DNA of 64,000 nucleotides, taken from the NCBI GenBank assembly GCA_963795125.1, contig CAWCGQ010000001.1, positions 407,024 through 471,023 on the forward strand, read 5' to 3'. A model generated the notes under the pieces. It was not told the DNA's origin, made no database searches, and saw only the letters and a program-made list of their open reading frames with translations. How positions within the stretch are numbered: the stretch's first letter is position 1; every line of letters starts with the position of its first letter. Source of the DNA: an uncultured Acidimicrobiia bacterium (lineage in GTDB: Bacteria > Acidobacteriota > Vicinamibacteria > Vicinamibacterales > UBA2999). The position numbers and the translations under genes are program-made. Below, piece by piece: positions 1-64,000 of the stretch.

Positions 1-279
1 GCGGAACAACGTCGCCACCGAGCGCGCCTCGATCACCTTGCGTTCGTTGAAGTCGGTGACGCAGTGAAAGGCGAGCGCCCCGGCGACGCGCGTCACCGGA
101 TCGAAGTCCATCGACTTGATGTGGCCGTTGCGGCGCACCAGCTCCTCGACCTGCTGCGGGGTCAGCTGCATCGGCACGTTGGCCGGCGCCGCGGCGGCCG
201 AATAGGGGTTGGGGATGCCGCCCTTGAGAAACGCTTTGCCGCTGGCGTCGAACTCGACCGGAAGGTTCTTGAAACACAT
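1..279 (-). CDS. [NiFe]-hydrogenase large subunit, first 93 codons (gene continues beyond the left edge)
   Basis: My reverse-strand translation from ATG at 279-277: MCFKNLPVEFDASGKAFLKGGIPNPYSAAAAPANVPMQLTPQQVEELVRRNGHIKSMDFDPVTRVAGALAFHCVTDFNERKVIEARSVATLFR. The DPVTR..G...(25 aa)...LFR(G) layout is the N-terminal layout of hydrogenase large subunits. GAGG lies a few nt upstream. It is absent from the ORF track because the window edge truncates it. Confidence 0.8.
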   Translation of the reverse strand, partial: MCFKNLPVEFDASGKAFLKGGIPNPYSAAAAPANVPMQLTPQQVEELVRRNGHIKSMDFDPVTRVAGALAFHCVTDFNERKVIEARSVATLFR

Positions 280-290
280 GTGCCGCTACC

Positions 291-552
291 TCAGAGACGA
301 AAGACGCGTGCGGCCGCGCCAAGATGACCGTCGACCACCTGGAGCGCGCCGGCGAGCGTGCCCAAGGCGCCGTTGATGGTGGCGAGTTTCTCGCCGACCG
401 GAACGGTGTGCGCGGCGACCGCTTCGAGCCCGTCGGCAATCGCGGCGACGCTGCGGCTGGCGTCGACGCAGCGCCCACGCGACCATCGAAAGGTACCCGG
501 CGAGCGCCACGACCACGAGGAACACGGTAATCAGCGTCAGGGTCAGCAGCAT
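291..552 (-). CDS. small single-pass membrane protein, paralog 5 of 5 between the hydrogenase S and L genes; one extra base near 466-470 as assembled
   Basis: N-terminus MLLTLTLITVFLVVVALAGYLSMVAWAL (TM helix) comes from the frame of ORF 286..753. Skipping one base near 468 gives VDASRSVAAIADGLEAVAAHTVPVGEKLATINGALGTLAGALQVVDGHLGAAARVFRL* (my translation). This parallels paralog 3 (LNDGLSQIAGGLGVVDGNLSQLAAAL). Its ATG overlaps the upstream stop (TGATG at 550-554). Confidence 0.6.
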
Positions 553-842
553 CACGCACGCTCCGCGCGGCGCGCCAGTGCGGCGGTCGCGCCGTTCAGT
601 TTCTGTTCGATCGCCGAGGCGGTGGTCAGGATGTCGACGGCGGTGGCAATGGTCGTGTCGAGCGCCGGGATGAGCGCGGTATTGCCGGCAATGCCAGCGG
701 CGGCCGTCAGCGCATCGCGCGCGTAGAGTTGAATCGCACGAGCGGCGCGCCACAGGCGATGCAATAGCGCCACCGAAAGCGGCACGAACACCAGCAGCGT
801 CACGGCCAGTCCCGCCGCCCAGATCAATTCAACGGTGGTCAT
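552..842 (-). CDS. small single-pass membrane protein, paralog 4 of 5
   Basis: ORF 552..842 (96 aa) has the N-terminal TM helix LIWAAGLAVTLLVFVPLSVALL, then a helical tail. Its AVDILTTASAIEQK matches AGDILETVQAIEQK of paralog 1. ATGA stop/start overlap at 839-842. Confidence 0.7.
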   Translation of the reverse strand: MTTVELIWAAGLAVTLLVFVPLSVALLHRLWRAARAIQLYARDALTAAAGIAGNTALIPALDTTIATAVDILTTASAIEQKLNGATAALARRAERA

Positions 843-1138
843 CGTCCCTCCTGCCGCTGCAGCGCCGCCGCGAGTTGAGAAAGATTGCCGTCGACCACGC
901 CCAGCCCGCCCGCTATTTGGGAGAGGCCGTCGTTCAGCCGCGGAACCTCATTGGGGATATAGGCGGTCTCGGCCTCAATCGCGCGCAGGCCCAGGCGAAT
1001 CTTGGCGAGGAAACTGGTCGGCGAGCCGCCGGCCGGTTCCAACTGCGCGAGGATCAGATGGAGGAAGATCGCCAGCGCAATGAACAGCGCCGACGCGGCG
1101 AGCACCGACGCAAGCGTCAACCAGGCAAGGGTCGTCAT
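839..1138 (-). CDS. small single-pass membrane protein, paralog 3 of 5
   Basis: From ORF 839..1171, using the internal ATG at 1138: MTTLAWLTLASVLAASALFIALAIFLHLILAQLEP.... That ATG overlaps the upstream stop as TGATG (1136-1140). The tail resembles paralog 5. Confidence 0.65.
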   Translation of the reverse strand: MTTLAWLTLASVLAASALFIALAIFLHLILAQLEPAGGSPTSFLAKIRLGLRAIEAETAYIPNEVPRLNDGLSQIAGGLGVVDGNLSQLAAALQRQEGR

Positions 1139-1464
1139 CACCGTCCTCCTGTGGCGTGTCCGATGACGCACCTGGGGCAGCCCGGACAGCCATTCGCGTG
1201 CGTGGCAATCGCGCCGGTCGCCGCGGCGACGCCGCCGGCAGATGTCAGGATTCGAGCCGCGACGTGATTGGTGTGATGCAGCAGCGACAGTTGAATGGTG
1301 TTGTTCGCCACCTTCTGGCCCGCCGTCCAGATCGCCGACACGCCGTCGTGAATCTGCGTCGAGGTCCGCAGGATCAACGTCAGCAGCGTGGCGACGACCA
1401 GCAGCACCACGACGAAGATGCCGAGCGACAGCAGCCAGATTTGGACGATGGTGTCCTCGGTCAT
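1138..1464 (-). CDS. small single-pass membrane protein, paralog 2 of 5, with C-terminal CPGCPRC motif
   Basis: ORF 1138..1464 (108 aa) has the TM helix IWLLSLGIFVVVLLVVATLLTLIL. It ends ...ATHANGCPGCPRCVIGHATGGR. ATGA overlap with the upstream gene at 1461-1464. Confidence 0.7.
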   Translation of the reverse strand: MTEDTIVQIWLLSLGIFVVVLLVVATLLTLILRTSTQIHDGVSAIWTAGQKVANNTIQLSLLHHTNHVAARILTSAGGVAAATGAIATHANGCPGCPRCVIGHATGGR

Positions 1465-1755
1465 CGCTTCAGCTCCTGCGCGGCGAGCGCGCCCGCGAGC
1501 AGGCCGCCCTTCTGTTCAATCGCCTGCACGGTCTCGAGGATGTCGCCGGCCACCTGATTGGTGTCCTGGAGGCCCCAGATCGGCTGGGTCTGTGTGCGAA
1601 TGGTCTCGACGGCGTGCAACGCGCGGACGGCATCGCCCAGGATCTGTTTTCGCCGTAAGCCAGATCGTGATCAGCAATCCCGCGGCGATCAGGATGACGA
1701 GCGTGGCCACGCCGATCCACAACCGCCACGCCGCCCAGAGATCCGCGTCGCTCAT
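1461..1755 (-). CDS. small single-pass membrane protein, paralog 1 of 5; one extra base in the T4/A4 run at 1647-1650 as assembled
   Basis: MSDADLWAAWRLWIGVATLVILIAAGLLITIWLTAK comes from ORF 1516..1833, internal ATG at 1755. Removing one A of AAAA gives QILGDAVRALHAVETIRTQTQPIWGLQDTNQVAGDILETVQAIEQKGGLLAGALAAQELKR* (my translation). ATGA overlap with the small-subunit stop at 1752-1755. Confidence 0.6.
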
Positions 1756-3066
1756 GATCGGCCTCCATCCTTCGTGACTGAATCGTCGAGGTAATCGCCC
1801 TTGGTCCCCGGACGGTCGGCGCCCCACAGCCACTCTTCCTCACCCGCGCGGCGCCCGGCCTTGCGCGAGCTCATGTGCTGCCACCGCTCGTAGAAAAAAT
1901 GAATCGTCTTGTCGATCGCCGTGGCCGGCTTGACGTGACCCCAGCCGCTCGGCACCTCGCCGAGGCGGTCCCAGCGGACTTCGCGGTTGCTCTCGCGATT
2001 GCTCAGGCGCCGCAGCCGCCGCACCACCGCCCCCACACTGCGCGACGCCAGCGTCGACACCGCCGCGCCCGGAGGGGTCTTGTAGAACGGCGTGAACTTG
2101 TCGGGAAAGCCCGGCATGGTGCAGCCGATGCACACCCCGCCGGCCTTCATGCAGCCGCCCATGTGATTGATGGCGCCGCGCTCGACGATGTTGCAGTTGA
2201 CGACCGGACCCCAGCAGCCGATCTCGACCAGGCACTCCGGGTCGCCGTACTCTTCGGCGAAGGTGCCTTCCTCGTAGTAGCCCGCGCGCGTGCACCCCTG
2301 GTGGACCGTCTTGCCGAACAGCCACGCCGGCCGGCCGAGCTCGTCGAACGCCGGCAGCGGGCCCAGGCCCTGCAGGAACAGCAGGATCGCGAACACCGTC
2401 TCGGTGAAGTTGTCGCCCACCGGCGCGCAGCCGGGGATGTTGATCACCGGCAGGCCGAACGCGCTGCGATAGTCCTTGCCAAGGGCGTCCATCACGCTCA
2501 TCGAGCCGGTGGGGTTGCCCTCGGCGGCCGGAACCCCGCCCCAGGTCGCGCAGGTGCCGATGGCAATGGTCGCCGCCGCGCCCGGCGCCATCGCCTTCAA
2601 CCAGGTCGCGGTCGGCTCGGGATGATGCTCGTAGTACGGTCCCGCGTCGTCCGGCACCGCCTCCACGCCCATGGCGGAAAAATACCCGCCGGTGCGCTGG
2701 GCGATCCGCTCGTCCGCCACGGAGCCTTCGAACACCAGCACGTACGGATCGGCGAGCTTGCCCTCCATGGCGTCGCGGAACGGCTGCACGAAGTCACGCG
2801 CCCGATTCGACGGCCAGGACCGGATGGTGCAGGACGACCTTGGGCATCGCCGGGACCACCCCAAGGAGCAGGCCCTCGATGCCTGGGTTGGTCGCGCCGG
2901 TCACGGCGATCGAACAGCCGTCGCAGCTCATGCCGGCGAGCCAGAAGACGTGGACGTTGCTGAGGGGACCGAGCGGGAGTCGTTCCTTCTTCTCCGCTTG
3001 TGTCACCGACGCTGGGATCGACGGCTGGCCGCCATGGACCTTGTCGCCACCAGGTGCTGCTGACAT
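1752..3066 (-). CDS. [NiFe]-hydrogenase small subunit, no twin-arginine signal; one extra base near 2801-2803 as assembled
   Basis: N-terminal part is in ORF 2794..3090 (VHVFWLAGMSCDGCSIAVTGATNPGIEGLL...HHPVLAVESG). The rest is in ORF 1752..2864 (GTCATWGG, PGCAPVGDN, HQGCTRAGYY, CLVEIGCWGPVVNCN, GGCMKAGGVCIGCTMPGFPD). These are the FeS-cluster Cys motifs of small subunits. ATG at 3066 follows GGAGAGGGG. No RRxF motif in the N-terminus. Confidence 0.9.
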
Positions 3067-3086
3067 CGTTGGGCCCCTCTCCGCAA

Positions 3087-4174
3087 TCAACAGATACGCG
3101 GTAACTGTTCACCGGCGAGCATCGGCACGATGCGACTGCCGCCGGCGACCGACTTCATGACCACCGTGCCGCGATGCTCGGCGACGACCTCGCCGATGAC
3201 CGCGGCGTCTCGGCCGAGCGGATGCGCGCGCATCGCCGCGCACCAGAGTCGTCGGCCTGCGCGGCGTCGACAATGGCGATCAACTTTCCCTCGTTGGCGA
3301 CGTAGAGCGGATCCAGGCCGAGAATTTCGCACGCCGCCTTCACCGAATCGCGAACCGGCAGGGCGCGCTCGTTCAGCTCGATGCCGACCTTCGACGCCGC
3401 CGCAATCTCGTTCAGCGCGCTCGACACACCGCCGCGGGTGGGATCGCGCATCGCGCGAATGCCGTCGCAACTCTGCAACATCAAGCCGGTCAGGCCGTTG
3501 AGCGCGGCGGTGTCGCTTTCAAGCGCGGTCTCGAATTCGAGGCCTTCGCGCACCGACATGATCGCCATGCCGTGGTCGCCGATGGTGCCGGATACGACAA
3601 TGCGGTCACCCGGACGCGCCGCCGCCACCGACAGCGCGACATCGTCCGCGATCAAACCAACGCCGGTTGTGGTGATGAAAATCTGATCGCCCTTGCCGCG
3701 ATCGACCACCTTGGTATCGCCCGCGACCACGGTGACGCCGGCTTCGTCCGCAGCCGCCTTCATCGACTCGGCGATGCGCCGCAGATCGTCGAGCGCCAGA
3801 CCTTCCTCGAGGATGAACGCCGCCGCGAGGAACATCGGCGTGGCGCCGCCGACGGCCAGATCGTTGACGGTGCCATGCACCGCAAGGCGGCCGATGTCGC
3901 CGCCCGGAAAAAAGATCGGCCGGACCACGAAACTGTCGGTGGTGATCGCCAGACGCGCGCGCCCGAGGCCGGGCAACGCGCACGACGCCTGATCTTCCAG
4001 CTGGTTGAGGACGTCGTTGCCGAGCGCCGGCAGGAACAGGCGCGACACCAGGTCCGCGCTCAGCCGCCCGCCGCTGCCGTGTCCGAGGAGGACGCGGTCA
4101 TAGCCGGCGAACGGCGCCGGGCAACTGCCGAGCAGTTCGCTGATGACGCCCTTGGCCACGGCCGACTCGCTCAT
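3087..4174 (-). CDS. hypE: hydrogenase maturation protein HypE; frame break near 3235-3250 (net +2/-1)
   Basis: MSESAVAKG...[31 protein letters not shown]...GDTKVV is in the frame of ORF 3155..5224. The C-terminus [19 protein letters not shown]...GEQLPRIC* is in ORF 3087..3470. ATGA overlap with the hypD stop at 4171-4174. Confidence 0.9.
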
Positions 4175-5283
4175 ACCGCCTCCGCGTGCGTCGTCTTGAG
4201 GCGGCCGTAGGCGAAGTAGGCGGCGCAGGCGCCTTCGGCGGAAACCATCGTCGCGCCCAACGGAGACTCGGGCGTACAGATCGTGCCGAACGCCGGGCAG
4301 TCGTGCGGCTTCTTCTGGCCGCGCAGGATCAACCCGCTGATGCAGATCGGTCGATTCGGCGGTGTCGATGGCGTGCACGTCGAAGCGCTTCTCGGCGTCG
4401 AAGGCGCGGTACTTGTCGCGCAGGCGCCACCCGCTTGCGGAATCGAGCCCGACGCCGCGCCACTTGCGATCGCATACCTCGAACACGTCGTCGATGAGCG
4501 CCACCGACGCGCGGTTGCCGCCGCGCGTCACGACGCGGCCGTATTGGTTTTCGAGCCGCGCCGCCCCGGTTTCGAGCTGCTCGACCGTGCGCAGGATGCC
4601 GTCGAGCATGTCCACCGGCTCGAAGCCGGTAATCACGATCGGCACCTGAAAGCGCTCGACCAGCGGCTCGTACTCTTCGAAGCCGACCACGGTGCACACG
4701 TGGCCGGGGCCGAGAAACGCCTGGACGCGATTGTCGGGCGCGTCGAGAATCGCGGCAATCGCCGGCGGCACCAGCACGTGCGAGACCAGCACGCTGAAAT
4801 TGGTGAGCCCGCGACGCGCTGCCAGGGAGACGGCCATCGCATTGGCCGGCGCCGTGGTTTCGAACCCGATGGCGAAGAACACCACCTCGCGCGCGGGGTT
4901 CGCGGCCGCGATCTGGACGGCGTCCAGCGGCGAATACACCACGCGAACGTCGGCGCCTTGCGACTTGAGCTGCAGCAGATCGCCGCGCGAGCCGGGCACG
5001 CGCAGCATGTCGCCGAACGAGCAGAAGGTCACCTCGGGGCGCGACGCGATCGCGTGGGCGCGATCGAGCACCTCGAGCGGCGTGACGCAGACCGGGCAGC
5101 CCGGGCCGTGCACCAGTTCGACTCCCGGGCGGCAGAATCTCGTCGATGCCGTATCTGACGATGGTGTGGGTCTGGCCGCCGCACACTTCCATGATCGTCC
5201 AGGGGCGGGTGACGCGGCCGGCAATCGCGCGCACCAGCTTGTTCGACGACGGCGCCGTCGCGGAATTCATCGAGGAACTTCAT
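4171..5283 (-). CDS. hypD: hydrogenase maturation protein HypD; three single-base frame breaks (about 5258, 5124, 4345)
   Basis: Four pieces: MKFLDEFRD (ORF 5029..5373 frame); [28 protein letters not shown] (ORF 4329..5270); [15 protein letters not shown]...[11 protein letters not shown]...ITGFEP (ORF 3155..5224). The fourth is my translation of the last stretch: [52 protein letters not shown]...*. Confidence 0.9.
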
Positions 5284-5518
5284 CGAGCTCCCCGAGTTGG
5301 TCCATGCCTTCGAGGAACGCGAATACGCGATGGGCCTCGACCTCGTCGATTTGCGCCAGCGCGAAACCGACATGGACGAGCACGTAGTCGCCGGGCTTCG
5401 CTTCGCGCACGTGGTCCATGCAGACGCGCTTGGACACCCCGCCGAAGTCGACCTTGCCCATCAGAATGCCGTGTTCGAGAAAGGTCTCGACGACTCGTCC
5501 CGGTATTCCCAAGCACAT
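5267..5518 (-). CDS. hypC: hydrogenase maturation chaperone HypC
   Basis: ORF 5267..5524. The canonical start is MCLGIPGRVV (Cys2) at 5518. The gene is small (83 aa) and sits directly between hypF and hypD. Confidence 0.9.
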   Translation of the reverse strand: MCLGIPGRVVETFLEHGILMGKVDFGGVSKRVCMDHVREAKPGDYVLVHVGFALAQIDEVEAHRVFAFLEGMDQLGELDEVPR

Positions 5519-5520
5519 CG

Positions 5521-7800
5521 TCAACGCCCCTTTACGCCAGTGAACCGCGCCGCGGCTACCGCTACCTGCCCGAGAGACAGACCGCCATCGCCGGGCGGCA
5601 TTTCCTGATGACGATACACCCTGAAACCCTCGGATACGAGTTGAGTTTCAACCTCGACCGTGAGGATGCCGTTGGCGAACACCCCACCCGATAAGGCGAT
5701 GTCTGCAATTCCCGTGCGGTCGCGCAGCGACCGCGCCACCGCCACCGCCGCCTGCGCCAGGGTGGTGTGGAAACGGCGGGCGATGACGGAGGGAGTAACG
5801 GCGTTGGTAACGTCCGTGTGCAGGGCGCGGACGAGCGGCCGCGTGTCGACGATGAGCGGCCACTCCAGGTCGTTCTCGACGCCGACCTGGTAGACCACAT
5901 CGTCGTCCGATTGCTCGGCGAGGGCTTCGAGCCACATCGCCGCCTGCCCTTCGAAGGTCATGACCGGCGCGGCGCCGCAGAGCGACGCGACGGCGTCGAA
6001 CAATCGTCCGACGCTCGAGGTCATCGGCGCGTTCAGACGCTGTTCGATCATCTGCCGCACCACGCCGCGCATCGATCGATCGAGTCCGGCGAGCGCGCGA
6101 TTGTCGTCGATGCCCGCATCGCGCAGATGGGAAAACGCCATCCGCCACGGCTCGCGTGCCGCCCGGTCGCCGCCTGGTTGGGCGACGTAGCGGAAGTGTG
6201 CCGCCCGCTCGAACCCCGCCCGATCGGCGATGAGGAATTCGCCGCCCCATACACAGCCGTCCGGCCCCCAGCCGGCGCCGTCCCACGCGAGCCCGATCAC
6301 CGGACCTTCGAGGCCATGCTCGGCCATGCACGACGCGACGTGGGCGTGATGGTGCTGGACGCCGATGATGTCAACGCCGGGGCGATCCAGCGCGAAGCGC
6401 GTCGACGCGTAGTCCGGGTGCAGGTCGTGCGCGACGATCGCCGGGGTCAGGTCGAACAGCTGCTCGTAGAGCGCGACGTCGCGCTCGAAGGCGTCGAATG
6501 CCGTCAGGTCGTCGAGGTCGCCGGCGTGGTGGCTGACGATGGCGGTGTGTCCGTGGGCCAGCGCGAAGGTGTTCTTCAGCTGGCCGCCGACCGCGAGGAT
6601 GGGTAGCGGGCAGTCAAACGACAGCGCGGTCGGGGCCGGCGCCCAGCCACGCGATCGCCGGATCACGATCGGCCGGCCGCCGGCGCGACGCACGACCGAG
6701 TCCTCGCAGCGAACGCGTATCTCGCGGTCGTGGAGTAGCCAGAGATCGGCAATGCCGCGCAGCCGAGCGATTGCCTCGGCGTTGTCGACGGCGATGGGCT
6801 CGTCGGATCGGTTGCCGCTCGTCATCACCAGGGGTCGCCCGCCTACCGCGCGCATCAGCAAATGATGCAGCGGGGTGTAGGGCAGCATGACGCCGAGCCG
6901 CGTGTGCTCGGGCGCCACCGCCGACGCGATTACCGCGGCCGCGTGGGCCCGCTGCTTCAGCAGGACAATCGGCCGGGCGCTCGATCCGAGCAGCGCGGCT
7001 TCCTCCTCTGAGAGCTCACAGAGCCGGTCGGCGTCCGCGCCGTCAGTCACCATGACGGCGAATGGCTTGTCGTCGCGATGCTTGCGCGATCGCAGGGCCG
7101 CGATTGCCTCGCTGTTGCCCGCATCGCAGGCGAGGTGGAAGCCGCCGAGCCCCTTGATGGCCACGATCTGCCCGGCGGAGAGGGCAGCGGCAGCGGCCGC
7201 GATCGGGTCGTCCACACCGCGGCCGTCAGCGTCGATCGCCTGGAGCGATGGACCACAAGCTGGGCAGGCAATCGGCTCGGCGTGAAACCGGCGGTTGCCT
7301 GGCGATTCGTATTCCGTCCGGCAATTCGCGCACATCTCGAACCGCGCCATCGTCGTTTGCGCGCGATCGTAGGGACTGCCGGTGATGATGGTCAGGCGCG
7401 GCCCGCAGGCGGTGCAGTTGATGAACGGATAGCGATATCGCCGGTCTGACGGATCGCCGAGTTCGTCGAGGCAGGCGTCGCAGGTCGCCGCGTCGGGCGG
7501 CACGAGCACCGCCGAGCCCGCCGCCGCGCCGCTGTCGGCAATCTGAAAGTGGGTGTCGCCGCGGATCTGCAGTTGCCGCGTGGCAATCGAGTGGATGCGC
7601 GCCAGTGGCGGCGCGCCGGCAATCAACTCGCGTTCGAACTCGGCCAGCGCGGACGGGTCGCCTTCCACTTCCACCGCCACCAGTCCGCCGTGATTGGCCA
7701 CGAAGCCGCGCAGAGCGAGCCGGGTGGCGACGCCATGAACGAACGGACGGAAGCCGACACCCTGCACCACGCCGCGGATGTCGAAGGCCCGGCGTTGCAT
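5521..7800 (-). CDS. hypF: carbamoyltransferase HypF
   Basis: ORF 5521..7893. Acylphosphatase-like N-terminus (FDIRGVVQGVGFRPFV), two Zn-finger motifs (CDACLDEL...YPFINCTACGPR; CANC...CPACGP), and YrdC and Kae1-like regions. The likely start is ATG at 7800, 3 nt after the permease stop. Confidence 0.9.
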   Translation of the reverse strand: MQRRAFDIRGVVQGVGFRPFVHGVATRLALRGFVANHGGLVAVEVEGDPSALAEFERELIAGAPPLARIHSIATRQLQIRGDTHFQIADSGAAAGSAVLVPPDAATCDACLDELGDPSDRRYRYPFINCTACGPRLTIITGSPYDRAQTTMARFEMCANCRTEYESPGNRRFHAEPIACPACGPSLQAIDADGRGVDDPIAAAAAALSAGQIVAIKGLGGFHLACDAGNSEAIAALRSRKHRDDKPFAVMVTDGADADRLCELSEEEAALLGSSARPIVLLKQRAHAAAVIASAVAPEHTRLGVMLPYTPLHHLLMRAVGGRPLVMTSGNRSDEPIAVDNAEAIARLRGIADLWLLHDREIRVRCEDSVVRRAGGRPIVIRRSRGWAPAPTALSFDCPLPILAVGGQLKNTFALAHGHTAIVSHHAGDLDDLTAFDAFERDVALYEQLFDLTPAIVAHDLHPDYASTRFALDRPGVDIIGVQHHHAHVASCMAEHGLEGPVIGLAWDGAGWGPDGCVWGGEFLIADRAGFERAAHFRYVAQPGGDRAAREPWRMAFSHLRDAGIDDNRALAGLDRSMRGVVRQMIEQRLNAPMTSSVGRLFDAVASLCGAAPVMTFEGQAAMWLEALAEQSDDDVVYQVGVENDLEWPLIVDTRPLVRALHTDVTNAVTPSVIARRFHTTLAQAAVAVARSLRDRTGIADIALSGGVFANGILTVEVETQLVSEGFRVYRHQEMPPGDGGLSLGQVAVAAARFTGVKGR

Positions 7801-7802
7801 CG

Positions 7803-8570
7803 TCAGCGCCGCCGCGTCGCGCCCTCGGCGACCAGGTTGCAGCCGAGCACGGTGAGGGTGATCGCCAGGCCTGGGAAGAGCGACATCCACCACGCCTCAC
7901 GCATGAACCGCAAGGCGCCGCCGAGCAGCGTCCCCCAGCTCATCACCGCCGAATCGCCGAGCCCCAGCAGGCTCAGCCCCGATTCAATCAGAATCGCGCC
8001 GCCGGCGTGATACGAAATCTGCGCGCCCATCACCGCCACCGATGCCGGGAGTACGTGCCGCCAGAGAATGGCCAGGTCGCCCGCGCCGGCGGCGCGCGAC
8101 GCCAGCACGAAATCGCGCTGCAGCGTGCCAAGGGCCTGCGCCCGGAACAACCGCGCGGTGATCGGCCACTCGGTAAGCCCGATGGCGAGGATGATCAATG
8201 CGAACGAGTGGCCGAACAGGCTGACGATGGTGACTACCAGGAGAAAGCGCGGCAGGGCCTGGAAAAAGTCGGTGGCCCGCATCAGCAGCTGATCGATCGC
8301 TCCGCCGCGAACCGCCGCGAGCCCGCCGACCAGCAGGCCCAGGCCCGCTGCGATCGCGGCCGCCGAGGCACCGGCGTAGAGCGAGGTGCGCGCGCCGTGC
8401 ACGACGCCGCTGAACACATCTCGTCCGAGGTCGTCGGTGCCAAACGGGTAGTCCCAGCCAGGCGGGAGCAGCGGTGGCGCTTGCGTCGAGAACGGGCTTC
8501 CCGGCGCCAGCCAGGACGCGCCGGCGGCGAGCGCGGCGAGCAGGACGAGGATGGCGACGCCTGGCTTCAT
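7803..8570 (-). CDS. ABC transporter permease, peptide/nickel (DppC/NikC-like) family
   Basis: ORF 7803..8570 (255 aa). It contains PFGTDDLGRDVFS and a binding-protein-dependent transport signature region (LASRAAGAGDLAILWRHVLP). Confidence 0.85.
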   Translation of the reverse strand: MKPGVAILVLLAALAAGASWLAPGSPFSTQAPPLLPPGWDYPFGTDDLGRDVFSGVVHGARTSLYAGASAAAIAAGLGLLVGGLAAVRGGAIDQLLMRATDFFQALPRFLLVVTIVSLFGHSFALIILAIGLTEWPITARLFRAQALGTLQRDFVLASRAAGAGDLAILWRHVLPASVAVMGAQISYHAGGAILIESGLSLLGLGDSAVMSWGTLLGGALRFMREAWWMSLFPGLAITLTVLGCNLVAEGATRRR

Positions 8571-8574
8571 GGCG

Positions 8575-9543
8575 TCATGCCAGCCTGACCCGCGGATCGA
8601 GCCAGGCGCATGCCGCGTCCGACAGCGCGTTGGCGCACACCACGGCGATCGAGATGAACAGGAAGGCCGACGTGACCAGCGGATAGTCGCGGTGCAGCGC
8701 CGCGTGCAGGATCACGTTGCCGAGGCCCGGCCAGCCGAACAGATATTCGGTGAACGCCGCGCCGCCGACGATTTGCGGCGCGTGCTGGCCTGCGAGCGTC
8801 GCCACCGCCGACAGCGCCTGCGGCCACGCGTGGCGGAGTAACAGTTGTCGCGCCGACAGGCCGCGCGCGCGCGCCGCCTGCATGAAGGTGTCGTCCATCG
8901 CCTCGAGCAGCGCCGCGCGCGTCACCCGCGCGACGACCGCCATGAACGGTATCGAGAGGGTGACCGCCGGCAGCACCAGATGCTGCAACACGTCGAAGGC
9001 GTAGTCCGCGCCAAACAGGGTTTCACGCGCGGTGGTGAGGCCGCCAACCGGAAGCAGGCGGAGCTTGACCGCGACGAGAAGAATCAGCACCTGGCCGGTC
9101 CAATAGATCGGCGCCGAATACATCAGCGCCGACGCCGAGCGAATCGCGCCATCCATCAGGCGCGAGCGCCACACCACCGACGCCGAGGCAAGCGCCGCGC
9201 CGCCGACGATCGACAACACCAGTGCCGTGGCGCCAAGCAGCAGCGAGGCCGGTGCGTATCGCGCCAGTACGGAGCCCACCGGCGCCTCGTAGGTGAACGA
9301 ATAGCCGAAGTCGCCGGTGAGGAGGGCGCGGGTGTAGCTGGCGAACTGCTCGGTGAGCGGCCGATCCAGCGCGAACTTCGCGCGCATGTCGTCGTAATAG
9401 GCCGGGCTGCCGCCGTCACCCGCGAGCAGGTACACCGGATCGCCCGGCGCCAGGTGGATCAACAGGAACGTCAGGACGGTAATGCCGACGACTACCGGCA
9501 CTGCCAGCACCAGCCGCCGCGCCGCCCAGTGCGCGAACGTCAC
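8575..9543 (-). CDS. ABC transporter permease, peptide/nickel (DppB/NikB-like) family
   Basis: ORF 8575..9582. The likely GTG start at 9543 overlaps the binding-protein stop (GTGA). LIHLAPGDPV near the N-terminus and ARARGLSARQLLLRHAWPQAL are typical of DppB-type permeases. Confidence 0.85.
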   Translation of the reverse strand: MTFAHWAARRLVLAVPVVVGITVLTFLLIHLAPGDPVYLLAGDGGSPAYYDDMRAKFALDRPLTEQFASYTRALLTGDFGYSFTYEAPVGSVLARYAPASLLLGATALVLSIVGGAALASASVVWRSRLMDGAIRSASALMYSAPIYWTGQVLILLVAVKLRLLPVGGLTTARETLFGADYAFDVLQHLVLPAVTLSIPFMAVVARVTRAALLEAMDDTFMQAARARGLSARQLLLRHAWPQALSAVATLAGQHAPQIVGGAAFTEYLFGWPGLGNVILHAALHRDYPLVTSAFLFISIAVVCANALSDAACAWLDPRVRLA

Positions 9544-11083
9544 CGCGCCTTCCGCACCGTTTCGGCAAAGGCGCCGGTCCACAGCCGGAAGCCGGTGAAC
9601 TCGGTGCGATACGCGCGCAGGCCTTCGGAATCGATCAGCCAGAAATAGGGCACCTCGTCGGCCAGGATCTTCTGGATCTCGACGTAGGCCCTGCGGCGCT
9701 CGGCGCGCTCCTGCGCCGCCGCGCCTTCGTCAAACAGCGCATCGACGCGCGCATTGCGATAGCCGGCGCCGTTCGAGAACGGATACGGGCCGATGTTCGA
9801 TGACACGTAAACGCGCCGAACCCCGATTTCCGGATCCGATCCGTTGCAGAACGAGGCCATGCCGAGGTCGAACGTCTTTCTTGACGAAGACCTGATCGAC
9901 CTGCGAGTTGAAATCCATCGACCGCAGATTGAGCGTGATGCCCGCGGCACTCAACTGGTCGCGCAGCGCCATCGCCAGCCGCTGCTGCGTTTGCGCATGC
10001 GTAAACGTGATCGCGATGCGCTCGCCGTTGGTCCCCGCTGTGAACCCGGCTTCGTCGAGCAGTCGGCGCGCTTCGCCGGCATCGTGGGCGTACTGCCGGA
10101 CATCCGGCGTGTAGGCCCACGCCAGCAGGTGACTGATCGGTCCGGTCGCCGGCTGGCCCTGGCCAAAGTACACGCGATCGACGATCGCCTGGCGGTCGAG
10201 CGCGTGTGCGAACGCGCGCCTCACGCGCAGATCGCTGAAGGGCGGTTTGGTCACGTTGGGAATCAGCACGTCCTGGCAGATTGAGCCGCCCGACCCCCCG
10301 GTCCCGGCAACGACGGCGATGCCGGGGGTCTGCTGGAGCCGCTGGATCTCTGGCCCCGAGACGCTGCCCGCGTAATCGATCTCGCCGCGCTCGAGCGCCG
10401 CGATTGCCGTGCTCGCTTCGGGCAGGATCTGGAACACCAGCCGATCGACGCCCGGGAGGTCCTTGCGGAAATAGTCGGGATTGCGCTCGAGGACGACCTG
10501 CGACCCCGGCGCGTAGCTCGCGAACCGGAACGGCCCGGTGCCGATGGGATGCGGCGGCCCCGACGCTTTCATCACGTCGAGTCCGGCGAACCTGTGCTTC
10601 GCAATGATCGACGCTTCGACGACGTCGAGCCGTTGGAGAAGCGCGCTGTACGGGTGCTTCAGCCGGAACACCACGGTGTGATCGTCAGGCGCGTCGATGC
10701 CGAGCATCAGGGGTTCGAGCGCCGCCCTGGTCCGGGAGTGGTACTTGAGCAGCGCCTCTTCGAACGTGAACTTGACGTCGGCGGCGGTGAATGGCGCGCC
10801 GTCGTGCCACCGCACGTCGCGACGCAGCCGGAATCGATAGGTGCGTCCCCCGTCCTCGGTGTCCCAGGCTTCGGCGAGTTCGGGAACCGGATTCAGATTC
10901 TCGTCGAGGCCAACGAGCCCGTTGAAGATCTGGTCCGTCACCGGGTGGGTGTTGCCCGATGTCGTCACGGCAGGATTGAGCGCGCCCAGGATCGCCGGCC
11001 TGCGAGACGACCAGCGTCGTTTGATTGGAAGGGGATCTGTCGCAGGCGACGCTTAACAGCAGCACGAACACCAGTCGGCGCAC
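9540..11083 (-). CDS. ABC transporter substrate-binding protein, family 5 (peptide/nickel type), exported; two single-base frame breaks (about 10980 and 9873)
   Basis: Signal/lipoprotein-like N-terminus MRRLVFVLLLSVAC (ORF 10685..11083). Core in ORF 9730..10968 (FNGLVGLDENLNPVPELAEAWD...TYRFRLRRDVRWHDG). C-terminus in ORF 9540..9950 (FDLGMASFCNG...VPYFWLI). Confidence 0.85.
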
Positions 11084-11178
11084 GCCGACACCCTATCAGG
11101 TTCCCTGGCCTTTCGGCCAACCCCCAGGTGTCCGCAGTCAATCGAGCGACCCCGGGTTTTCAGGTAGACTTGTTCGAG

Positions 11179-44722: not shown

Positions 44723-44896
44723 GCGCCGATCGTAGAGTCTGGGAGCTTTTACGGGTCAGATCCTTTGACCGCCGTTCAACGGCGGTTAGTCTGGGCGATT
44801 GGGGCACTAAGGGTATATGCTTAGGTTCCTCGTAACGAGTGCCGTCGTTAGCGTCAGCGTTGTTTAACGTTAGTGTCGGCGCTTCCAGGAGCCAAC

Positions 44897-51522: not shown

Positions 51523-51524
51523 CG

Positions 51525-51881
51525 CTACGCGATTCGCAGTGGAGACGCCAGCCGCCGCAGCGCCGGGTTCTCGGCGGCGATACCGACGGTGTAGCGCAAG
51601 GAGCGCTCGGGCTCGCTGCGCGTCAACTCGACGGGGCTGTCTTCTTTTCGCGCGAAGCTGAACGCCGTCCAATAGAGTTTCGGCGCCGAGCCGAAGGCAG
51701 ACAGGGGCTTGTGCCCGTGCCTGATGTCATAGGCAATGTGGGCATCGGCAATCTTTACCAGGGTATCCAGGGCGGCCTCGGCGGTGCGACCCGCCGCGGC
51801 CAGGTCGTGCTCCAGGGACCTCGCCGTCCAGGTCTTGGGGGTCTCGGGGAAGACCACGATCCTCAGGCTCGAGCAGGACAT
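51525..51881 (-). CDS. hypothetical protein (weak resemblance to HicB-like/UPF0150 fold)
   Basis: ORF 51525..51881 (118 aa): LRIVVFPETPKTWTARSLEHDLAAAGRTAEAALDTLVKI.... The function call is tentative. Confidence 0.45.
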   Translation of the reverse strand: MSCSSLRIVVFPETPKTWTARSLEHDLAAAGRTAEAALDTLVKIADAHIAYDIRHGHKPLSAFGSAPKLYWTAFSFARKEDSPVELTRSEPERSLRYTVGIAAENPALRRLASPLRIA

Positions 51882-51951
51882 GACAACGGGGTTATCGGAT
51901 GGTGCCCCGCGCGACAGTATCCCCGGCCGGGAGTGGCGGCCGACCGGGAAG

Positions 51952-56808: not shown

Positions 56809-58934
56809 ATGAAGGTTCCATCGATTGTCATGGGAGTGACGCTCCTGGCGGGCGTCGCGCTGACGGCGGCCCAACTCGTCGTGCCGGGCCGTGCCGGTAT
56901 CGTCACGCCGGCCAGTCTCTCGCCCACGCCGCATCCACCGGTGCCCGGCGATCTCGCCTCGATGTGGCTGGTCCCCGAACAGAGCGGCAAGCTCGGGTCG
57001 GCGATGACCAACTTCGTCCGCGGCGTTCGCCTGCTCGAAGAAGACGGGAGTGCCGCCGCGGCGTTGCCGCTGGTCAGTGACGGCGCGCTCTCGACGACGC
57101 CGGTGGCCGACTACGCGCGCTACTACACCGGCCTCGCGCTGATGAAGCTCGATCGCTATGCCGAAGCCGACCGCGTCTTCGCCGATCTGGCGTCACGCCC
57201 GATCGCCGGACACCTGCCGGAGGATGCGGCGTTTCGTCTTGGCCGAGGTGCGCGAGACGCGGAAGGACTACAAAGGCGCGGTCGCTGTTTACGAACACGC
57301 TGGTCGCGAAAGACGCTGGCGCAGCCGCAGGTGGCGTGGCTGCGGCTCGGCCTGGCCGCGGATCTCGCCGGCTTGCCGATGCGATCCGTCGAAGCTTTGC
57401 AGCGCGCCTATTACGACTATCCCACCAGCGGCCGAAGCCGATCGCGCGGGCGAAGCGCTCGACAAGCAGGATGTCGACCTCGAGGCGGCGTTGGCGCCGA
57501 AGGAACTGGCCCGCGCGGAAACGCTGTTTCAGGCGCGCCGCTGGAGCGCCGCGCAGTGCGTCGTACGATCGCGTCAGGACGTTTGTCACCGGCACCGATC
57601 GCGATCGCGTGACGATGCGGCTCGCCGCCGCCGACATCGCGCTCGGACGTCATCGCGAAGGCCGCGATGCGCTGCGCCCGCACCTGAATGGCGCGCTGGC
57701 CGACGAGGCGAACTTTCACTTCGTCACCGCCACGCGCGGGCTGAAGCTGAACGACGAACACATCACGCTGTCGCACGCGTTCGTCGAGAAGTTCCCGGCC
57801 AGTCCGTTCGCCGACGAGGTGCTCAACGGCCTGGCGTCCGCCTACATCATCGACAATCGCGATGCCGAGGCGCGACCAGGTGTTCGCGAGGTACTCAGCC
57901 GCTATCCGTCGGGCCGCTTCGCCGAGCGCGCGGCGTGGAAAGCGGGATGGTGGGCCTATCGGCAGGGGCGGTTCCGCGATGCGCTGCAGTATTTCGACAA
58001 GGGCGCCGCGCAGTTCCCGCGCTCCGACTACCGGCCGTCGTGGCTCTACTGGTCGGGACGTGCGGCGCAGCAGGCCGGTGACGTCGAAACCGGCGTCGCG
58101 CGCCTGCGGCTGACCGCCACCGATTATCACAACTCGTATTACGGCCGGCTCGCCGTGAAGCGCCTCGACGGCGGGCGCGGCGGCGCGGTCGCGCCGACGC
58201 TGCATCGCCAGCCGGCCGCCGAGCCGGCGATCCCGACCGCCGGGCAGATCGCGTCGCTGTTGTCGGTCGGCCTCAATCGCGAAGCGATGAACGAGCTGCA
58301 GTACGCGCAGCGGGTGTGGGGCGATTCGCCGCAGCTGCAGGCCACCATCGCGCTCACGCACCGGCGGCTCGGCAACGTTCGCGCCGGCATCAACGCGATG
58401 AAGCGCGCGTATCCGCAGTATCTCGCCGCCGGCGGCGAAACCCTGCCGGCCGCCATTCTGCAGGTCATTTTCCCGGTCGACTACTGGCCGCTGCTGCAGC
58501 GGTATGCCAAGGACCGCAACCTCGATCCCTACCTGGTGGCGGCGCTGGTCGCGCAGGAATCGAATTTCGATCCGGTGGTGGTCTCGCCGGCCAACGCCTA
58601 TGGCCTGATGCAGATCCTGCCGAGCACCGGGCGCAGTTACGCGCGCAAGCTGGGCGTCTCGCCGTTCTCGACCAAACGCCTGACCGAAGCCGATCTCAAC
58701 GTGCGGCTCGGCACCCAGATCTTCGCCGACGATATCCGCAAGTTCGGCGGAGTGCATTTCGCGCTCGCCGCCTATAACGCCGGCGGCAGCCGCGTGTTCG
58801 CGTGGCGCCGCGACAAGCCCGGGCTGCCACAGGACGAGTTCATCGACGACATTCCCTTTCCGGAAACGCAGAACTACGTGAAGCGTATTCTCGGAACCGC
58901 CGAAGATTATCGATCCTTGTATAGCGGCCGCTGA
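56809..58934 (+). CDS. slt: soluble lytic murein transglycosylase (Slt70-like: superhelical N-domain + GH23 SLT domain); five single-base frame breaks between about 57240 and 57560
   Basis: Signal MKVPSIVMGVTLLAGVALTAA (ORF 56779..57612). The pieces cycle through frames 56779 / 57158 / 57336. Catalytic region VAQESNFDP...AYGLMQILPSTG...LAAYNAGG is in ORF 57336..58934. Confidence 0.85.
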
Positions 58935-61805: not shown

Positions 61806-63406
61806 ACATCGCCGCTCTTCTCGAGCGGCCGGAGGTAATCGGCGTAGTCGCCATCGAGACGGCGAACCATGCGGTCGCGCGCCTCGGCGTTCATCAGATC
61901 GAGATGGACGACCACGTAGCGCGCAGCCAGCGGCTCGAGAATCGCGAACGCCTCGCGGCTTGGAAATGTGTTCAGCGTCGGCGCGGCGTCACGAAAGTTC
62001 TGGGGAATGTGATCGCTGTAGCCGTTGACGAGCGGCTGCCAGTGCGCGGTCGAGGCCAGCATGTATTCCGCATGGCGATGATACTCGGGACTGGTCGCCC
62101 AGAATGGCAGCTCGATCGTCGGCGCGGTCGGAAGGTCGGCCAATACGCGGTAGGCCTGCGGCAGCGGCGGCGCCTCGCGCAGTCGCAGCGGCGCGCGATA
62201 AGTGTCGGCGACCGCCAGGACGAGCAGCACCAGGAACGCGGCGTTGACCGCCTTGCGCCGCATCAGCCCGGCAAGGGCCGGCGCGGCGAGCACCACCAGG
62301 CATAACGTCACGACAATTCCAGCCCGCGACGGCGCCCGCAGGAACGAGAACACCGGAATCGTGTAATAGAGCAGCGAGTACAGGCCGGCACTCGGTCCCA
62401 GCGTGAGCCAGAACGCGAACACCGCCAGTCCAACGTAGTAGATGGTTTCGTCGCGCCTGAGTCCCACGCCGTCCCGTTCGCGCACCAGGGTCGCGCCCCA
62501 GCAGCCGAGGACGATCGCCAGGATCCCGGGAAAGAGCACTTCGCTCGGGCTCGACAGATACGGCGCCCACCAGCGGTGGGCCCATGCCGATGAGATGAGC
62601 CACGCGCCAAGGTTGGCGGAATACTGACCGCTCAGCGATCGCTCGAAGCCGGTGGATTCCTGCATCTGCAGGTAGGGCAGGAAGAACGGCACGATGGTCC
62701 CGATGCACACCGCGGCGGCGACGCCAACCAGTCCCCAGTACTTGACATCCTTCCAGCGCTGCCGGGAGATCGCGAACCAGATGCTCGCGAAGGCCACCAT
62801 CCCGCCCGCGAAGATTCCGTAGTAGGCGCACGCCAGCCCGGTCACGCTCAGCACCAGGCCGAGTTCAATTGCGCGGGCGAGCGTCGTGCGGTCCATGAAG
62901 CGATGCCAGGCAAGCAGGGCCCAGGGCAGGAACCCGATCATCAACAGCTGCACGTGCGCCTGCCTCGCAAACGCGAACGGGCAGAACGCGAACAGGATCC
63001 CGGCGATGATCGCGGCGCGGCGATCCCCGGTGAGGCGGCGAATCAGGTAATACGTCGCGACGAACGACAACGCGAACGAACACAGGAACACGAAATTGTG
63101 GGTGGCGTACGGGTTCCTGGTCAGCAGCCACACCGGCGCGCCGATCACGCCTTCCACGATGTTGCCCTCCGAGAAGGCCAGCGCGTTGGGGTGGGGATAG
63201 AAGATGTTGGCGCCGAACAGCTGCGATGGCGCCGTGGTCAGCGCGTGCGCGACCCACGACACCACCCAGATGCTCCAGCGGCCGTCATTGGTATCCAGAC
63301 GCCCGGCGCTACCGAAGAGAGCGATGTAGGGCGGCGTGAAGGCACATGCGAGGAACACGGCGCCGAGCACGACGGCCGTGGCCTCAACGGATCCGCGGAA
63401 GCGCAT
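61772..63406 (-). CDS. polytopic membrane protein, GT-C-like (putative glycosyltransferase) paralog A
   Basis: ORF 61772..63406 (544 aa). LDTNDGRWSIWVVSWVAHAL...FGANIFYPHPNALAFSEGNIV aligns with LDNHDAELNTWIVAWVAHIL...FEAPILYPEPHSLAFSEHMLV of paralog B. 34-nt overlap with B. Confidence 0.6.
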   Translation of the reverse strand: MRFRGSVEATAVVLGAVFLACAFTPPYIALFGSAGRLDTNDGRWSIWVVSWVAHALTTAPSQLFGANIFYPHPNALAFSEGNIVEGVIGAPVWLLTRNPYATHNFVFLCSFALSFVATYYLIRRLTGDRRAAIIAGILFAFCPFAFARQAHVQLLMIGFLPWALLAWHRFMDRTTLARAIELGLVLSVTGLACAYYGIFAGGMVAFASIWFAISRQRWKDVKYWGLVGVAAAVCIGTIVPFFLPYLQMQESTGFERSLSGQYSANLGAWLISSAWAHRWWAPYLSSPSEVLFPGILAIVLGCWGATLVRERDGVGLRRDETIYYVGLAVFAFWLTLGPSAGLYSLLYYTIPVFSFLRAPSRAGIVVTLCLVVLAAPALAGLMRRKAVNAAFLVLLVLAVADTYRAPLRLREAPPLPQAYRVLADLPTAPTIELPFWATSPEYHRHAEYMLASTAHWQPLVNGYSDHIPQNFRDAAPTLNTFPSREAFAILEPLAARYVVVHLDLMNAEARDRMVRRLDGDYADYLRPLEKSGDVWLYEIVTWPR

Positions 63407-63458
63407 GTGTGACGCTAGAATAGCATCCTGACAAATCAGCTGCGGGCTGAATCATCCA

Positions 63459-64000
63459 GTGGATCGCCTACTTGAACTGACCTATCGGGCCGAGCAGTCG
63501 CACTTTTGGTTTCGGGGTTTTCGTCAATACATGAAACCGGCGCTGGCGCGCGCCACCGCCGGCGTGCCGCGCGCGCGTATTCTTGATTGCGGCTGCGGGA
63601 CCGGATCGAATCTCGACATGCTGCGGCCGTATGGCGAGGCCGTCGGCTTCGACCTGACGCGCATTGGCCCCGAATTCGCCAGGGCGCACGGCCACCGGGT
63701 CGCGCAGGCGAGCATCAGCGATATCCCGTTTGCCGGCGGCAGCTTCGACCTGGTGACGTCGTTCGACGTGTTTCAGACGCTGCCCGATGCGGTCGAGCGC
63801 GCGGCCATCGTCGAGATCGCGCGCGTGCTGAAACCGCGCGGCTACGTGCTGCTGCATGTGGCCGCGCTCGAGATCCTTCACGGCAGGCACTCGGTGTTGT
63901 CGGAAGAGACGCGCCGCTATACGCCGGCGTCCCTGCGATCGCTGGTCGAAGGCGCCGGCCTGACGATCGAGCGGCTGACTTTCGACCACCTGAGCCTGCT
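63459..64000 (+). CDS. class I SAM-dependent methyltransferase, truncated by the right edge
   Basis: My translation from GTG 63459: VDRLLELTYRAEQSHFWFRGFRQYMKPALARATAGVPRARILDCGCGTGSNLDML...SFDLVTSFDVFQTLPD...LKPRGYVLLHV. Motif I is LDCGCGTG. It is absent from the ORF track because it is open-ended. Confidence 0.8.
   Translation, partial: MDRLLELTYRAEQSHFWFRGFRQYMKPALARATAGVPRARILDCGCGTGSNLDMLRPYGEAVGFDLTRIGPEFARAHGHRVAQASISDIPFAGGSFDLVTSFDVFQTLPDAVERAAIVEIARVLKPRGYVLLHVAALEILHGRHSVLSEETRRYTPASLRSLVEGAGLTIERLTFDHLSL

Follow-up and report, generated by a model that had tools for sequence, protein, structure and literature searches.

Nearly one-directional single-base frame breaks in 19 genes of a 64-kb metagenomic window and their probable origin as consensus errors

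Conserved genes in the window, i.e., the whole 64-kb stretch of DNA analysed here, are interrupted by 39 frame breaks distributed over 19 genes. The breaks were identified by frameshift-aware alignment to intact orthologues together with DNA alignment to four collinear relatives. All but one (38 of 39) consist of one extra base (+1), the exception being a one-base deficit (-1) in the PBP1A gene (42143-42145). They are very probably errors that remained uncorrected in the consensus of a long-read metagenome assembly, most of them in places where few reads, or reads of several strains, supported the sequence. No biological importance is indicated; the breaks are almost certainly not a real feature of the genome and serve as a caution for its annotation.

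Number, direction and spacing of the frame breaks

The breaks (Table 1) correspond to a density of 0.6 per kb, and the lesion spectrum comprises 38 insertions, one deletion and no stop codons. An earlier note, made from the sequence alone, had counted about 37 or more breaks in about 19 genes, nearly all shifting the frame by +1, and both the tally and the direction (38:1) hold. Its counts for hypD (three), the substrate-binding protein, the ATPase, the oxidase and CopB (two each) and slt (five) agree with ours. Single breaks lie in two small membrane proteins, the hydrogenase small subunit, the outer-membrane efflux protein, the RND pump, msrA, the histidine kinase, the response regulator, the small secreted protein and the DUF1453 protein. 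For PBP1A, where about eight +1 events had been proposed, alignment to orthologues gives eight plus one -1 event, the latter a true one-base deficit near 42144 that had been placed near 42140. The other site regarded as +2/-1, in hypE near 3240, turned out to be two single-base insertions 11 nt apart. Two +1 events in a large Ig/FG-GAP protein, at 47953 and 45923-45924, are new. The final list was taken from the orthologue alignment because a codon-usage HMM, which alone caught most of the breaks, overlooked the 47953 break and places where the frame is lost only briefly (hypD 4350, PBP1A 41937/41966, and the slt pair), and mislabelled 282-468.

The direction and clustering statistics were computed on 38 events, prior to the discovery of the 45923 site. 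For this set, the direction is 37:1 (binomial p = 3e-10), event counts per 2-kb bin have a variance/mean ratio of 2.2 (p = 4e-4), the occurrence of at least nine events in any 2-kb span has p = 4e-4, and the longest stretches without events measure 13.9 kb (p = 0.003) and 9.3 kb (p = 0.002). Clustering is significant and extends over distances from a few kilobases up to about 10 kb, and the uneven distribution remarked on previously is borne out by the ratio and the gaps. Dense spots are PBP1A, with nine breaks in 2 kb, and slt, with five in 0.32 kb.

Several other candidates were rejected. A putative +1 event at 56687 is unsupported, since it falls in the tail of a GAF protein that is poorly conserved and differs in length between L003, L167 and L168. 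The marks at 3067, 5285, 12764/12805, 14380 and 36615 lie at the edges of genes or ahead of start codons and are alignment effects, not breaks, as is the 12522/12562 pair in an OMP alignment of 35% identity.

Table 1. Frame breaks in the 64-kb window; bracketed letters mark the inserted base.
Gene or product	Position	Strand	Shift	Evidence and remarks
Small membrane protein (86-aa orthologue), last of five small genes between hydrogenase subunits	465-467	-	+1	Single-base gap vs L009, L169, L170; frameshift-aware alignment; sense CTGCG[T]CGAC
Small membrane protein (97-aa orthologue)	1646-1650	-	+1	Single-base gap vs L009, L169, L170; orthologue scoring prefers 1646
NiFe hydrogenase small subunit	2796-2803	-	+1	L009 protein; single-base DNA gap; best positions 2799-2800
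hypE, downstream member of pair	3234-3241	-	+1	Two separate 1-nt gaps vs L170; net +2 vs L009 and L169
hypE, upstream member of pair	3244-3248	-	+1	GACGA[C]TCTGG vs L170 GACGA-TCTGG
hypD, immediately ahead of C-x-C-G (CISG) motif	4347-4352	-	+1	Six HypD orthologues; DNA gaps vs L009, L169, L170
hypD	5122-5130	-	+1	HypD orthologues; DNA gaps
hypD, N-terminal part	5241-5251	-	+1	HypD orthologues; DNA gaps
ABC substrate-binding protein (family 5)	9876-9883	-	+1	Seven orthologues; sense AAGAAA[G]ACGTTCGA vs L170; SBP_bac_5 match crosses junction
Substrate-binding protein, past signal peptide	10984-10988	-	+1	Orthologues; DNA alignment
Outer-membrane efflux protein, within signal peptide	11646-11660	+	+1	Position ambiguous; reading frames; weak orthologue (35% identity); least secure event
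RND efflux pump	14939-14940	+	+1	G to GG; orthologue alignment
msrA, between VSSG and DTGH	28869-28872	-	+1	Reading frames; PMSR profile crosses junction in repaired protein
Copper P-type ATPase	31885-31889	-	+1	Orthologues; 434-aa fragment downstream is a called protein
P-type ATPase, N-terminal metal-binding region	32636-32652	-	+1	Orthologue alignment
Histidine kinase	33745-33759	-	+1	L088, L093; 7-nt gap in DNA alignment, taken as two codons and an additional base
OmpR-type response regulator, between receiver and DNA-binding domains	34867-34872	-	+1	Orthologue; DNA alignment
Multicopper oxidase, Met/His-rich region	37860-37872	+	+1	Orthologue; DNA alignment ambiguous, region length-variable
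Multicopper oxidase	37921-37936	+	+1	Orthologue; DNA alignment
CopB	38861-38869	+	+1	Three orthologues; DNA alignment
CopB, close to C-terminus	39276-39278	+	+1	Orthologue; DNA alignment
Small secreted protein (163-aa orthologue)	40535-40539	+	+1	Alignment to L168
DUF1453 membrane protein	41124-41126	-	+1	Orthologue; DNA alignment
PBP1A, event 1	41490-41497	+	+1	25 orthologues; DNA vs L168
PBP1A, event 2	41935-41937	+	+1	25 orthologues; DNA vs L168; TCGC[G]AGC
PBP1A, event 3	41959-41967	+	+1	25 orthologues; DNA vs L168
PBP1A, sole deletion found	42143-42145	+	-1	All 25 orthologues; CTGCG-GTGCGT vs L168 CTGCGTGTTCGA
PBP1A, event 4	42302-42309	+	+1	25 orthologues; DNA vs L168
PBP1A, event 5	42577-42581	+	+1	25 orthologues; DNA vs L168; GACG[C]TCC
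PBP1A, event 6	42871-42876	+	+1	25 orthologues; DNA vs L168
PBP1A, event 7	43097-43102	+	+1	25 orthologues; DNA vs L168; CAG[A]CCGATCGG, both flanks as in L168
PBP1A, event 8	43232-43235	+	+1	25 orthologues; DNA vs L168
Ig/FG-GAP protein, one codon ahead of stop	45923-45924	-	+1	GTA[C]CGATAG; one orthologue only (P0450)
Ig/FG-GAP protein, first repeat	47953-47954	-	+1	P0396, P0398, P0399; reading frames; 223-aa N-terminal ORF split off
slt, event 1	57237-57242	+	+1	Orthologue; single-base gaps vs L167 and L168
slt, event 2	57294-57299	+	+1	Orthologue; gaps vs L167 and L168
slt, event 3	57304-57315	+	+1	Orthologue; gaps vs L167 and L168
slt, event 4	57428-57431	+	+1	Orthologue; gaps vs L167 and L168
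slt, event 5	57555-57557	+	+1	Orthologue; gaps vs L167 and L168; near CAG[T]GCG

Condition of the interrupted genes and their orthologues

In the repaired alignments all of the repaired genes read through without a stop codon. PBP1A and slt share 81-84% nucleotide identity with L168, as compared with 75-89% for their intact neighbours; judged from these alignments, the broken genes are no more diverged than the intact ones and relaxed constraint is not apparent. The frame is uninterrupted at the break positions in the collinear loci L009, L088, L167, L168, L169 and L170, and, in the genes compared, these single bases are the only frameshifting indels that separate the window from the four collinear relatives. 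Comparison with orthologous loci, a check that the earlier note had proposed, found intact orthologues throughout, and among the 120 matches listed for each of PBP1A, slt and the binding protein essentially all are full length, the exception being P0348. The locus around the PBP1A orthologue P0052 lacks collinearity with the window and was of no use for the other genes. An exact look-up of an intact window protein returned a single further record of the species, a 1.5-kb Logan contig (ERR12037361); its 91-aa tail of PBP1A says nothing about the breaks, since that frame is open in the window as well.

Positions 1-5600 share 84% nucleotide identity with L169 and L170 and include nine extra bases within coding sequence, while two extra bases were found relative to the relatives in positions 5500-11100. 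At the DNA level, PBP1A has eight extra bases and one missing base relative to L168, and slt has five extra bases relative to both L167 and L168. No frameshifting indels relative to the relatives were seen in hypF and the GT-C pair, in accordance with their earlier description as free of breaks, nor in either of the two permeases. The TamB-Omp85 ORF, the GGDEF gene and the receptor each have a single coding frame end to end according to the codon-usage HMM. In the case of the Ig/FG-GAP protein, removal of one C at 45923-45924 yields the terminus ...SVTVR*, which can be compared with ...SVSVR* in the orthologue P0450. The stop codon is lost at this site, and the ORF therefore continues into the HAD hydrolase gene.

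Sequence context of the inserted bases

Tabulation of the insertion contexts, also proposed previously, was carried out for 35 sites and revealed the same mix of contexts as in simulated random insertions. The view that the inserted base extends a short run or duplicates a neighbour is not a general rule. Runs of at least three bases make up 10% of the window, few of the break sites can be placed in such a run, and no concentration of errors in homopolymers was found when the break sites were tested against the simulation. Orthologue scoring is best solved at 10 of the 35 sites by a base whose flanking bases differ from it, and by a duplicated base at four (14939, 41963, 42308, and 57294). Insertions outside runs include CAG[A]CCG at 43098, GACG[C]TCC at 42578, AAGAAA[G]ACG at 9876 (sense strand), and CAG[T]GCG or CGC[A]GTG at 57555-57557. 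Among the bases that had been pinned to runs, GG at 14939-14940 is supported, and GGG at 28870-28872 and at 11646-11648 is a possible, not a unique, solution; for the two remaining assignments, the orthologue scores point to non-run bases, at 1646 and 2799-2800. The insertions are not the classic homopolymer-length error. A link to GATC or methylation motifs was hinted at by four early sites and failed over the full list.

Origin of the breaks and consequences for annotation

The reading as a sequencing, polishing or assembly artefact, advanced in the earlier note, is better supported than any other, by breaks that are single bases, nearly one-directional, and located in genes otherwise undamaged and conserved whose orthologues are intact. 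The window comes from a 2.62-Mb contig of an uncultured Vicinamibacterales (Acidobacteriota) genome. A long-read assembly is suggested by the recovery of a contig of this length from a soil metagenome, and we infer both the sequencing platform and the dependence of the breaks on local coverage or on a mixture of strains. Where local reads were thin or strain-mixed, consensus building or polishing would leave single spurious bases, each of which would shift the frame by +1 and cause gene callers to output truncated or run-on proteins. The alternation of clean 9-14 kb stretches with dense ones fits the scale of long-read coverage fluctuation. Indels left in consensus sequences from long reads (Nanopore or PacBio) are known to fragment gene calls, a problem measured by the IDEEL test, and Nanopore-only metagenome bins below about 40x coverage require further polishing (PMC9262707). 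The breaks resemble such errors in that they are single-base indels in otherwise intact conserved ORFs, yield truncated proteins where orthologues are full length, and lie at varying density along a contig that is very long and derives from a complex community in soil. In contrast, the published errors are mainly of homopolymer length and often deletions (PMC9262707), whereas here insertions predominate 38:1 in random-like contexts.

One form of consensus artefact would write both alleles in series at strain SNPs (CT[C/G], AA[A/G], CA[G/A]), producing a +1 shift. It would account for the insertion-only bias and for clustering in strain-variable segments, and many sites do look like a codon in which two alternatives for the third base follow one another. 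For example, the relatives differ at 466 (CGC vs CTC) where the window has CGTC, have GAG or GAC at 5241 where the window has GAAC, and have S or A at 57555 where the window has (T/G)CG. Moreover, at 21 of the 35 real sites (60%) either of two neighbouring, non-identical bases solves the alignment equally well, as compared with 44% of the simulated ones. However, this surplus relative to random insertions does not reach significance (p = 0.09), nearly any non-homopolymer insertion can be so read, and a duplicated base fits best at the four sites named above; we regard this form as rather unlikely. Synthetic insertions, placed in the window on purpose after download, would also agree with contexts that resemble random placement. 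The source contig (2,622,034 bp), however, is available from NCBI and ENA, and the genes called on it include fragments truncated at the breaks, i.e., P0348, a 412-aa binding-protein fragment with 100% identity, and the ATPase fragment (Table 1). Furthermore, among the matches listed, that contig contributes no intact copy of PBP1A, Slt or the binding protein, and the best matches are 85-87% identical. Since the publicly deposited sequence already contains the breaks, the window was not altered afterwards; the deliberate perturbation that had been entertained is excluded, and we assign it a negligible probability.

Real decay produces insertions, deletions and stops in mixture, together with raised divergence. 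That the window derives from a decaying or hypermutating lineage with true pseudogenes would be in keeping with breaks that stand in the deposited sequence, which by itself holds no proof that the reads disagree, and with frameshifted copies of genes intact in relatives, as in reductive evolution. Unlike pseudogenes of that kind, the genes in the window exhibit no deletion over one base, no stops and no excess divergence, their identity to orthologues is normal, and single genes carry several breaks. Nine breaks in one otherwise undamaged 2-kb gene would all have to be extremely recent if real, and 0.6 per kb, extrapolated genome-wide, would break most genes. Such a density is incompatible with life, and the functions affected are essential or expensive ones (PBP1A, hydrogenase maturation, the RND pump, and the P-type ATPase). 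We consider true pseudogenes very unlikely. It is more improbable still that the extra bases are truly in the DNA of the living population, through segment-wise insertion-biased mutation or with expression that tolerates +1 shifts, such that 19 genes including PBP1A would be decoded regardless. Programmed +1 ribosomal frameshifting or transcriptional slippage would restore the proteins, and all shifts but one do share a direction, as recoding requires and as read-through in prfB/RF2-type frameshifting needs. Unlike in that system, there is no conserved site, the diverse contexts have no slippery or stimulatory motif in common, up to nine sites occur within one gene, and the shift sites are conserved in none of the orthologues, the relatives all having an uninterrupted frame. 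On the strength of the intact orthologue sequences, recoding is effectively refuted and its likelihood is close to nil.

If the breaks are consensus errors, annotation of the genome would yield numerous false pseudogenes, proteins cut short and one or more false fusions (the Ig/FG-GAP protein into the HAD gene), and such calls would skew completeness, metabolic and pangenome analyses. Were the rate in the window to hold genome-wide, the errors would number in the thousands. Their signature, i.e., nearly insertions only, outside homopolymers and in kilobase-scale clusters, is unusual and may trace to one particular step of consensus building or polishing, perhaps triggered by strain mixture. 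Because the insertions lie outside homopolymers, homopolymer-aware correction would not remove them. Large Nanopore-only sets of soil MAGs, with a single Medaka round, have been deposited in ENA and NCBI (PMC12313526). Many MFD bins, which are soil MAGs of this kind, are among the genome matches of a HypE scan of GTDB.

Frame breaks in conserved genes

Segmentation of all six frames with a codon-usage model, for which the window's own long ORFs served as training set, revealed many same-strand frame switches within conserved proteins. Because this model overlooks short out-of-frame stretches, a frameshift-tolerant protein-to-DNA aligner was written for use with intact orthologues. A second line of evidence was direct DNA alignment to relatives with matching gene order: L009 (Luteitalea sp.) for 1–5 kb, L169 (an NCBI MAG) and L170 (a JGI contig) for 1–11.1 kb, L088 for 33.2–39.4 kb, and L167 and L168 (megahit contigs) for 40.3–64 kb. 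The orthologue and DNA alignments give 39 events in 19 genes, i.e., 38 extra bases (+1) and one missing base (-1), and so bear out the frame breaks that the earlier note had described.

Single-base frame breaks by gene
Gene	Position in window	Events	Remarks
PBP1A	41383–43414	eight +1, one -1	same places in all 25 orthologues tested
slt		five +1	against both L167 and L168
hypD	~5242, 5130, 4350	three +1	DNA alignment to L169, L170
hypE	3248, 3237	two +1	DNA alignment to L169, L170
Hydrogenase small subunit	~2797	one +1	DNA alignment to L169, L170
Two small membrane proteins	1646 and 466	one +1 each	DNA alignment to L169, L170
Binding protein (5500–11100)	9876, 10987	two +1	
ATPase	31886, ~32645	two +1	metal-resistance block
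Histidine kinase	~33750	one +1	metal-resistance block
Response regulator	34868	one +1	metal-resistance block
Multicopper oxidase	~37869, 37927	two +1	metal-resistance block
CopB	38864, 39276	two +1	metal-resistance block
RND pump	14939–14940	one +1	
Efflux outer-membrane protein	~11650	one +1	weakest case of all
msrA	28869–28872	one +1	
Small secreted protein	~40537	one +1	
DUF1453 protein	41125	one +1	
Ig/FG-GAP protein	47953	one +1	
Ig/FG-GAP protein	45923–45924	second +1	one codon ahead of stop

Past the start codon of PBP1A, the only in-gene indels relative to L168 (83.5% nucleotide identity) are the eight extra bases and the one missing base. The slt gene shows no further indel against L167 and L168 over 2.1 kb beyond its N-terminal start region; a -1 called there by the aligner at 57302 was rejected, being actually two +1 events 15 nt apart. 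In window 1–5600, the coding indels against L169 and L170 (84% identity) are single extra bases, and the hypE site previously read as a +2 shift is really two +1 events. Deletion of one C from the end of the Ig/FG-GAP gene yields ...SVTVR*, the orthologue P0450 ending in ...SVSVR*, while the ORF as deposited continues into the HAD hydrolase gene. Within 5500–11100, hypF and both permeases are clean. No shifts were found against the related loci L168, L088 or L097 in the histidine kinase at 43434–44531, the HAD hydrolase, the acyl-CoA dehydrogenase, the aminotransferase, both GT-C genes, the methyltransferase, lgt, and the gene at 35354–36589.

Single-base differences from the relatives also occur between genes, at 3072–3083 (between hypE and the small-subunit gene) and at 280 (just upstream of the large-subunit start), where they are indistinguishable from natural variation. 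The window may therefore contain more insertion errors than 39, a count that covers coding sequence only.

Direction, clustering and sequence context

All statistics refer to the 38 events known when they were run, not to the full 39. The direction bias is 37:1 (p = 3e-10). The uneven distribution proposed in the earlier note was confirmed by the variance-to-mean ratio of counts in 2-kb bins (2.2; p = 4e-4), by nine events within one 2-kb span (p = 4e-4), by event-free gaps of 13.9 kb (p = 0.003) and 9.3 kb (p = 0.002), and by five adjacent pairs at most 60 nt apart, where 1.3 would be expected (p = 0.008). Breaks are found at 0.4–5.3 kb, 9.8–15 kb, 28.8–43.3 kb and 57.2–57.6 kb, among other places, whereas 15–28.8 kb and 48–57.2 kb are clean. 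The alternation spans distances of a few hundred bases up to about 14 kb; long reads, and shifts in coverage or strain composition within metagenome assemblies, have similar dimensions.

The earlier note also took the inserted base, where it could be pinned, to lengthen a run or copy its neighbour, which did not hold as a rule. For 35 insertions, each base around the site was deleted in turn and the repaired protein scored against orthologues. The best solution was a base flanked by different bases at 10 of the 35 sites, e.g., TCGC[G]AGC at 41937 and GACG[C]TCC at 42578; CAG[A]CCG at 43098, with both flanks identical to L168, was added by DNA alignment. A doubled base was the best solution at only four sites, and few sites were compatible with a run of at least three bases; such runs make up 10% of the window. 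The same pipeline was applied to 140 composition-matched random bases put into intact window genes. Of the real insertions, 29% had a single-position solution (34% of the simulated ones), 11% a same-base-run solution (23%), and 60% a tie between neighbouring bases that differ (44%; p = 0.09). In this respect the real insertions thus resemble randomly placed ones, not homopolymer-length errors.

Origin of the breaks

After repair, no stop codon is found in any alignment, the broken genes match their intact neighbours in similarity to orthologues, and every orthologue is full length. Nine independent frameshifts in PBP1A, a cell-wall synthase without other lesion, cannot be old, and 0.6 breaks per kb, if extended to the whole genome, is incompatible with life. 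Genome decay is rejected, having failed on both lesion spectrum and divergence. Programmed recoding is likewise excluded, since the break sites share no motif and no orthologue carries a shift.

The intact window proteins trace, by exact look-up, to one public NCBI/ENA contig of 2,622,034 bp. Clustered at 90% identity, its proteins are almost all singletons, which indicates a new species represented by a single, very long contig, and from this we infer a long-read metagenome assembly. The G+C content of the window is 67%, and homologues of PBP1A, Slt and the ABC binding protein come overwhelmingly from soil metagenomes and Vicinamibacterales MAGs. A histidine kinase with 100% identity to that of the window is present in sample ERR12037361. 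The binding-protein search matched P0348, a 412-aa fragment from the same contig (100% identity), which corresponds exactly to the shortened ORF lying between that gene's two breaks and runs out of frame to a false stop. Similarly, a 434-aa ATPase fragment starting just past the 31886 break is a called protein of the source contig. For PBP1A, Slt and the binding protein, the collection has no intact copy from this contig, the best matches being 85–87% identical. Because the public fragments are truncated at the same breaks, later manipulation of the window is rejected; the errors lie in the deposited assembly and are not a biological feature. The artefact interpretation of the earlier note is thereby supported, with the corrections concerning hypE and base context.

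Gene calls are fragmented here in the same way as by long-read consensus indels, and the window is filed with that known class, with the caveat that the homopolymer feature of the class was looked for and not found. Long-read consensus errors are usually described as homopolymer-length errors (PMC9262707), whereas the window events resemble random insertions. A possible cause is that, where strains differ by a SNP, the consensus sometimes contains the two alleles one after the other. A number of sites have this appearance, including position 466, where the window reads CGTC and two relatives CGC and CTC, and position 57555, where it reads (T/G)CG and relatives encode S or A; however, the excess of adjacent-different-base ties over chance is not significant. 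ENA contains unannotated Nanopore-only soil MAGs from Flye assembly followed by a single round of Medaka polishing (PMC12313526), and it is known that bins with less than about 40x coverage require additional polishing (PMC9262707). Many such bins (MFD...) are among the genome matches, and the source contig may be one of them. The result calls for caution among users of the source genome, and the insertion-only, non-homopolymer signature poses a small methodological puzzle.

Neighbouring genes

At 21142–27984 (+), one ORF of 2280 aa contains a TamB-like protein, whose end resembles ...GSYRFDFQHDVR, followed by a short linker rich in Pro and Arg and then by POTRA repeats with an Omp85 barrel. 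The join could be a real fusion or a run-on from an error at the junction, the latter being conceivable because the +1 at 45923 demonstrably removed the Ig/FG-GAP stop. An intact msrB (29106–29627, -), rated non-coding by the codon-usage model, adjoins the broken msrA.

The small- and large-subunit genes of the NiFe hydrogenase are separated by five tandem small genes (294–1760, -), an insert unusual for a hydrogenase operon. The five genes also occur in L169 (13709–15171), L170 (19212–20674) and L009, with order kept in all three; in these relatives they encode 97, 108, 99–100, 96 and 86 aa. The five window proteins have one N-terminal hydrophobic helix each and appear paralogous, and the two scanned gave no Pfam match.

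The spacer between the histidine kinase and HAD hydrolase genes (44532–45189) has 658 nt and no convincing ORF, against 82 nt in L168. Between its HAD hydrolase and acyl-CoA dehydrogenase genes (45835–51954), the window has about 6 kb of DNA that the collinear relatives L168 (5519–7420) and L003 lack; this DNA contains the genes for the Ig/FG-GAP repeat protein and for a GAF-GGDEF protein of 1026 aa, together with a small ORF.
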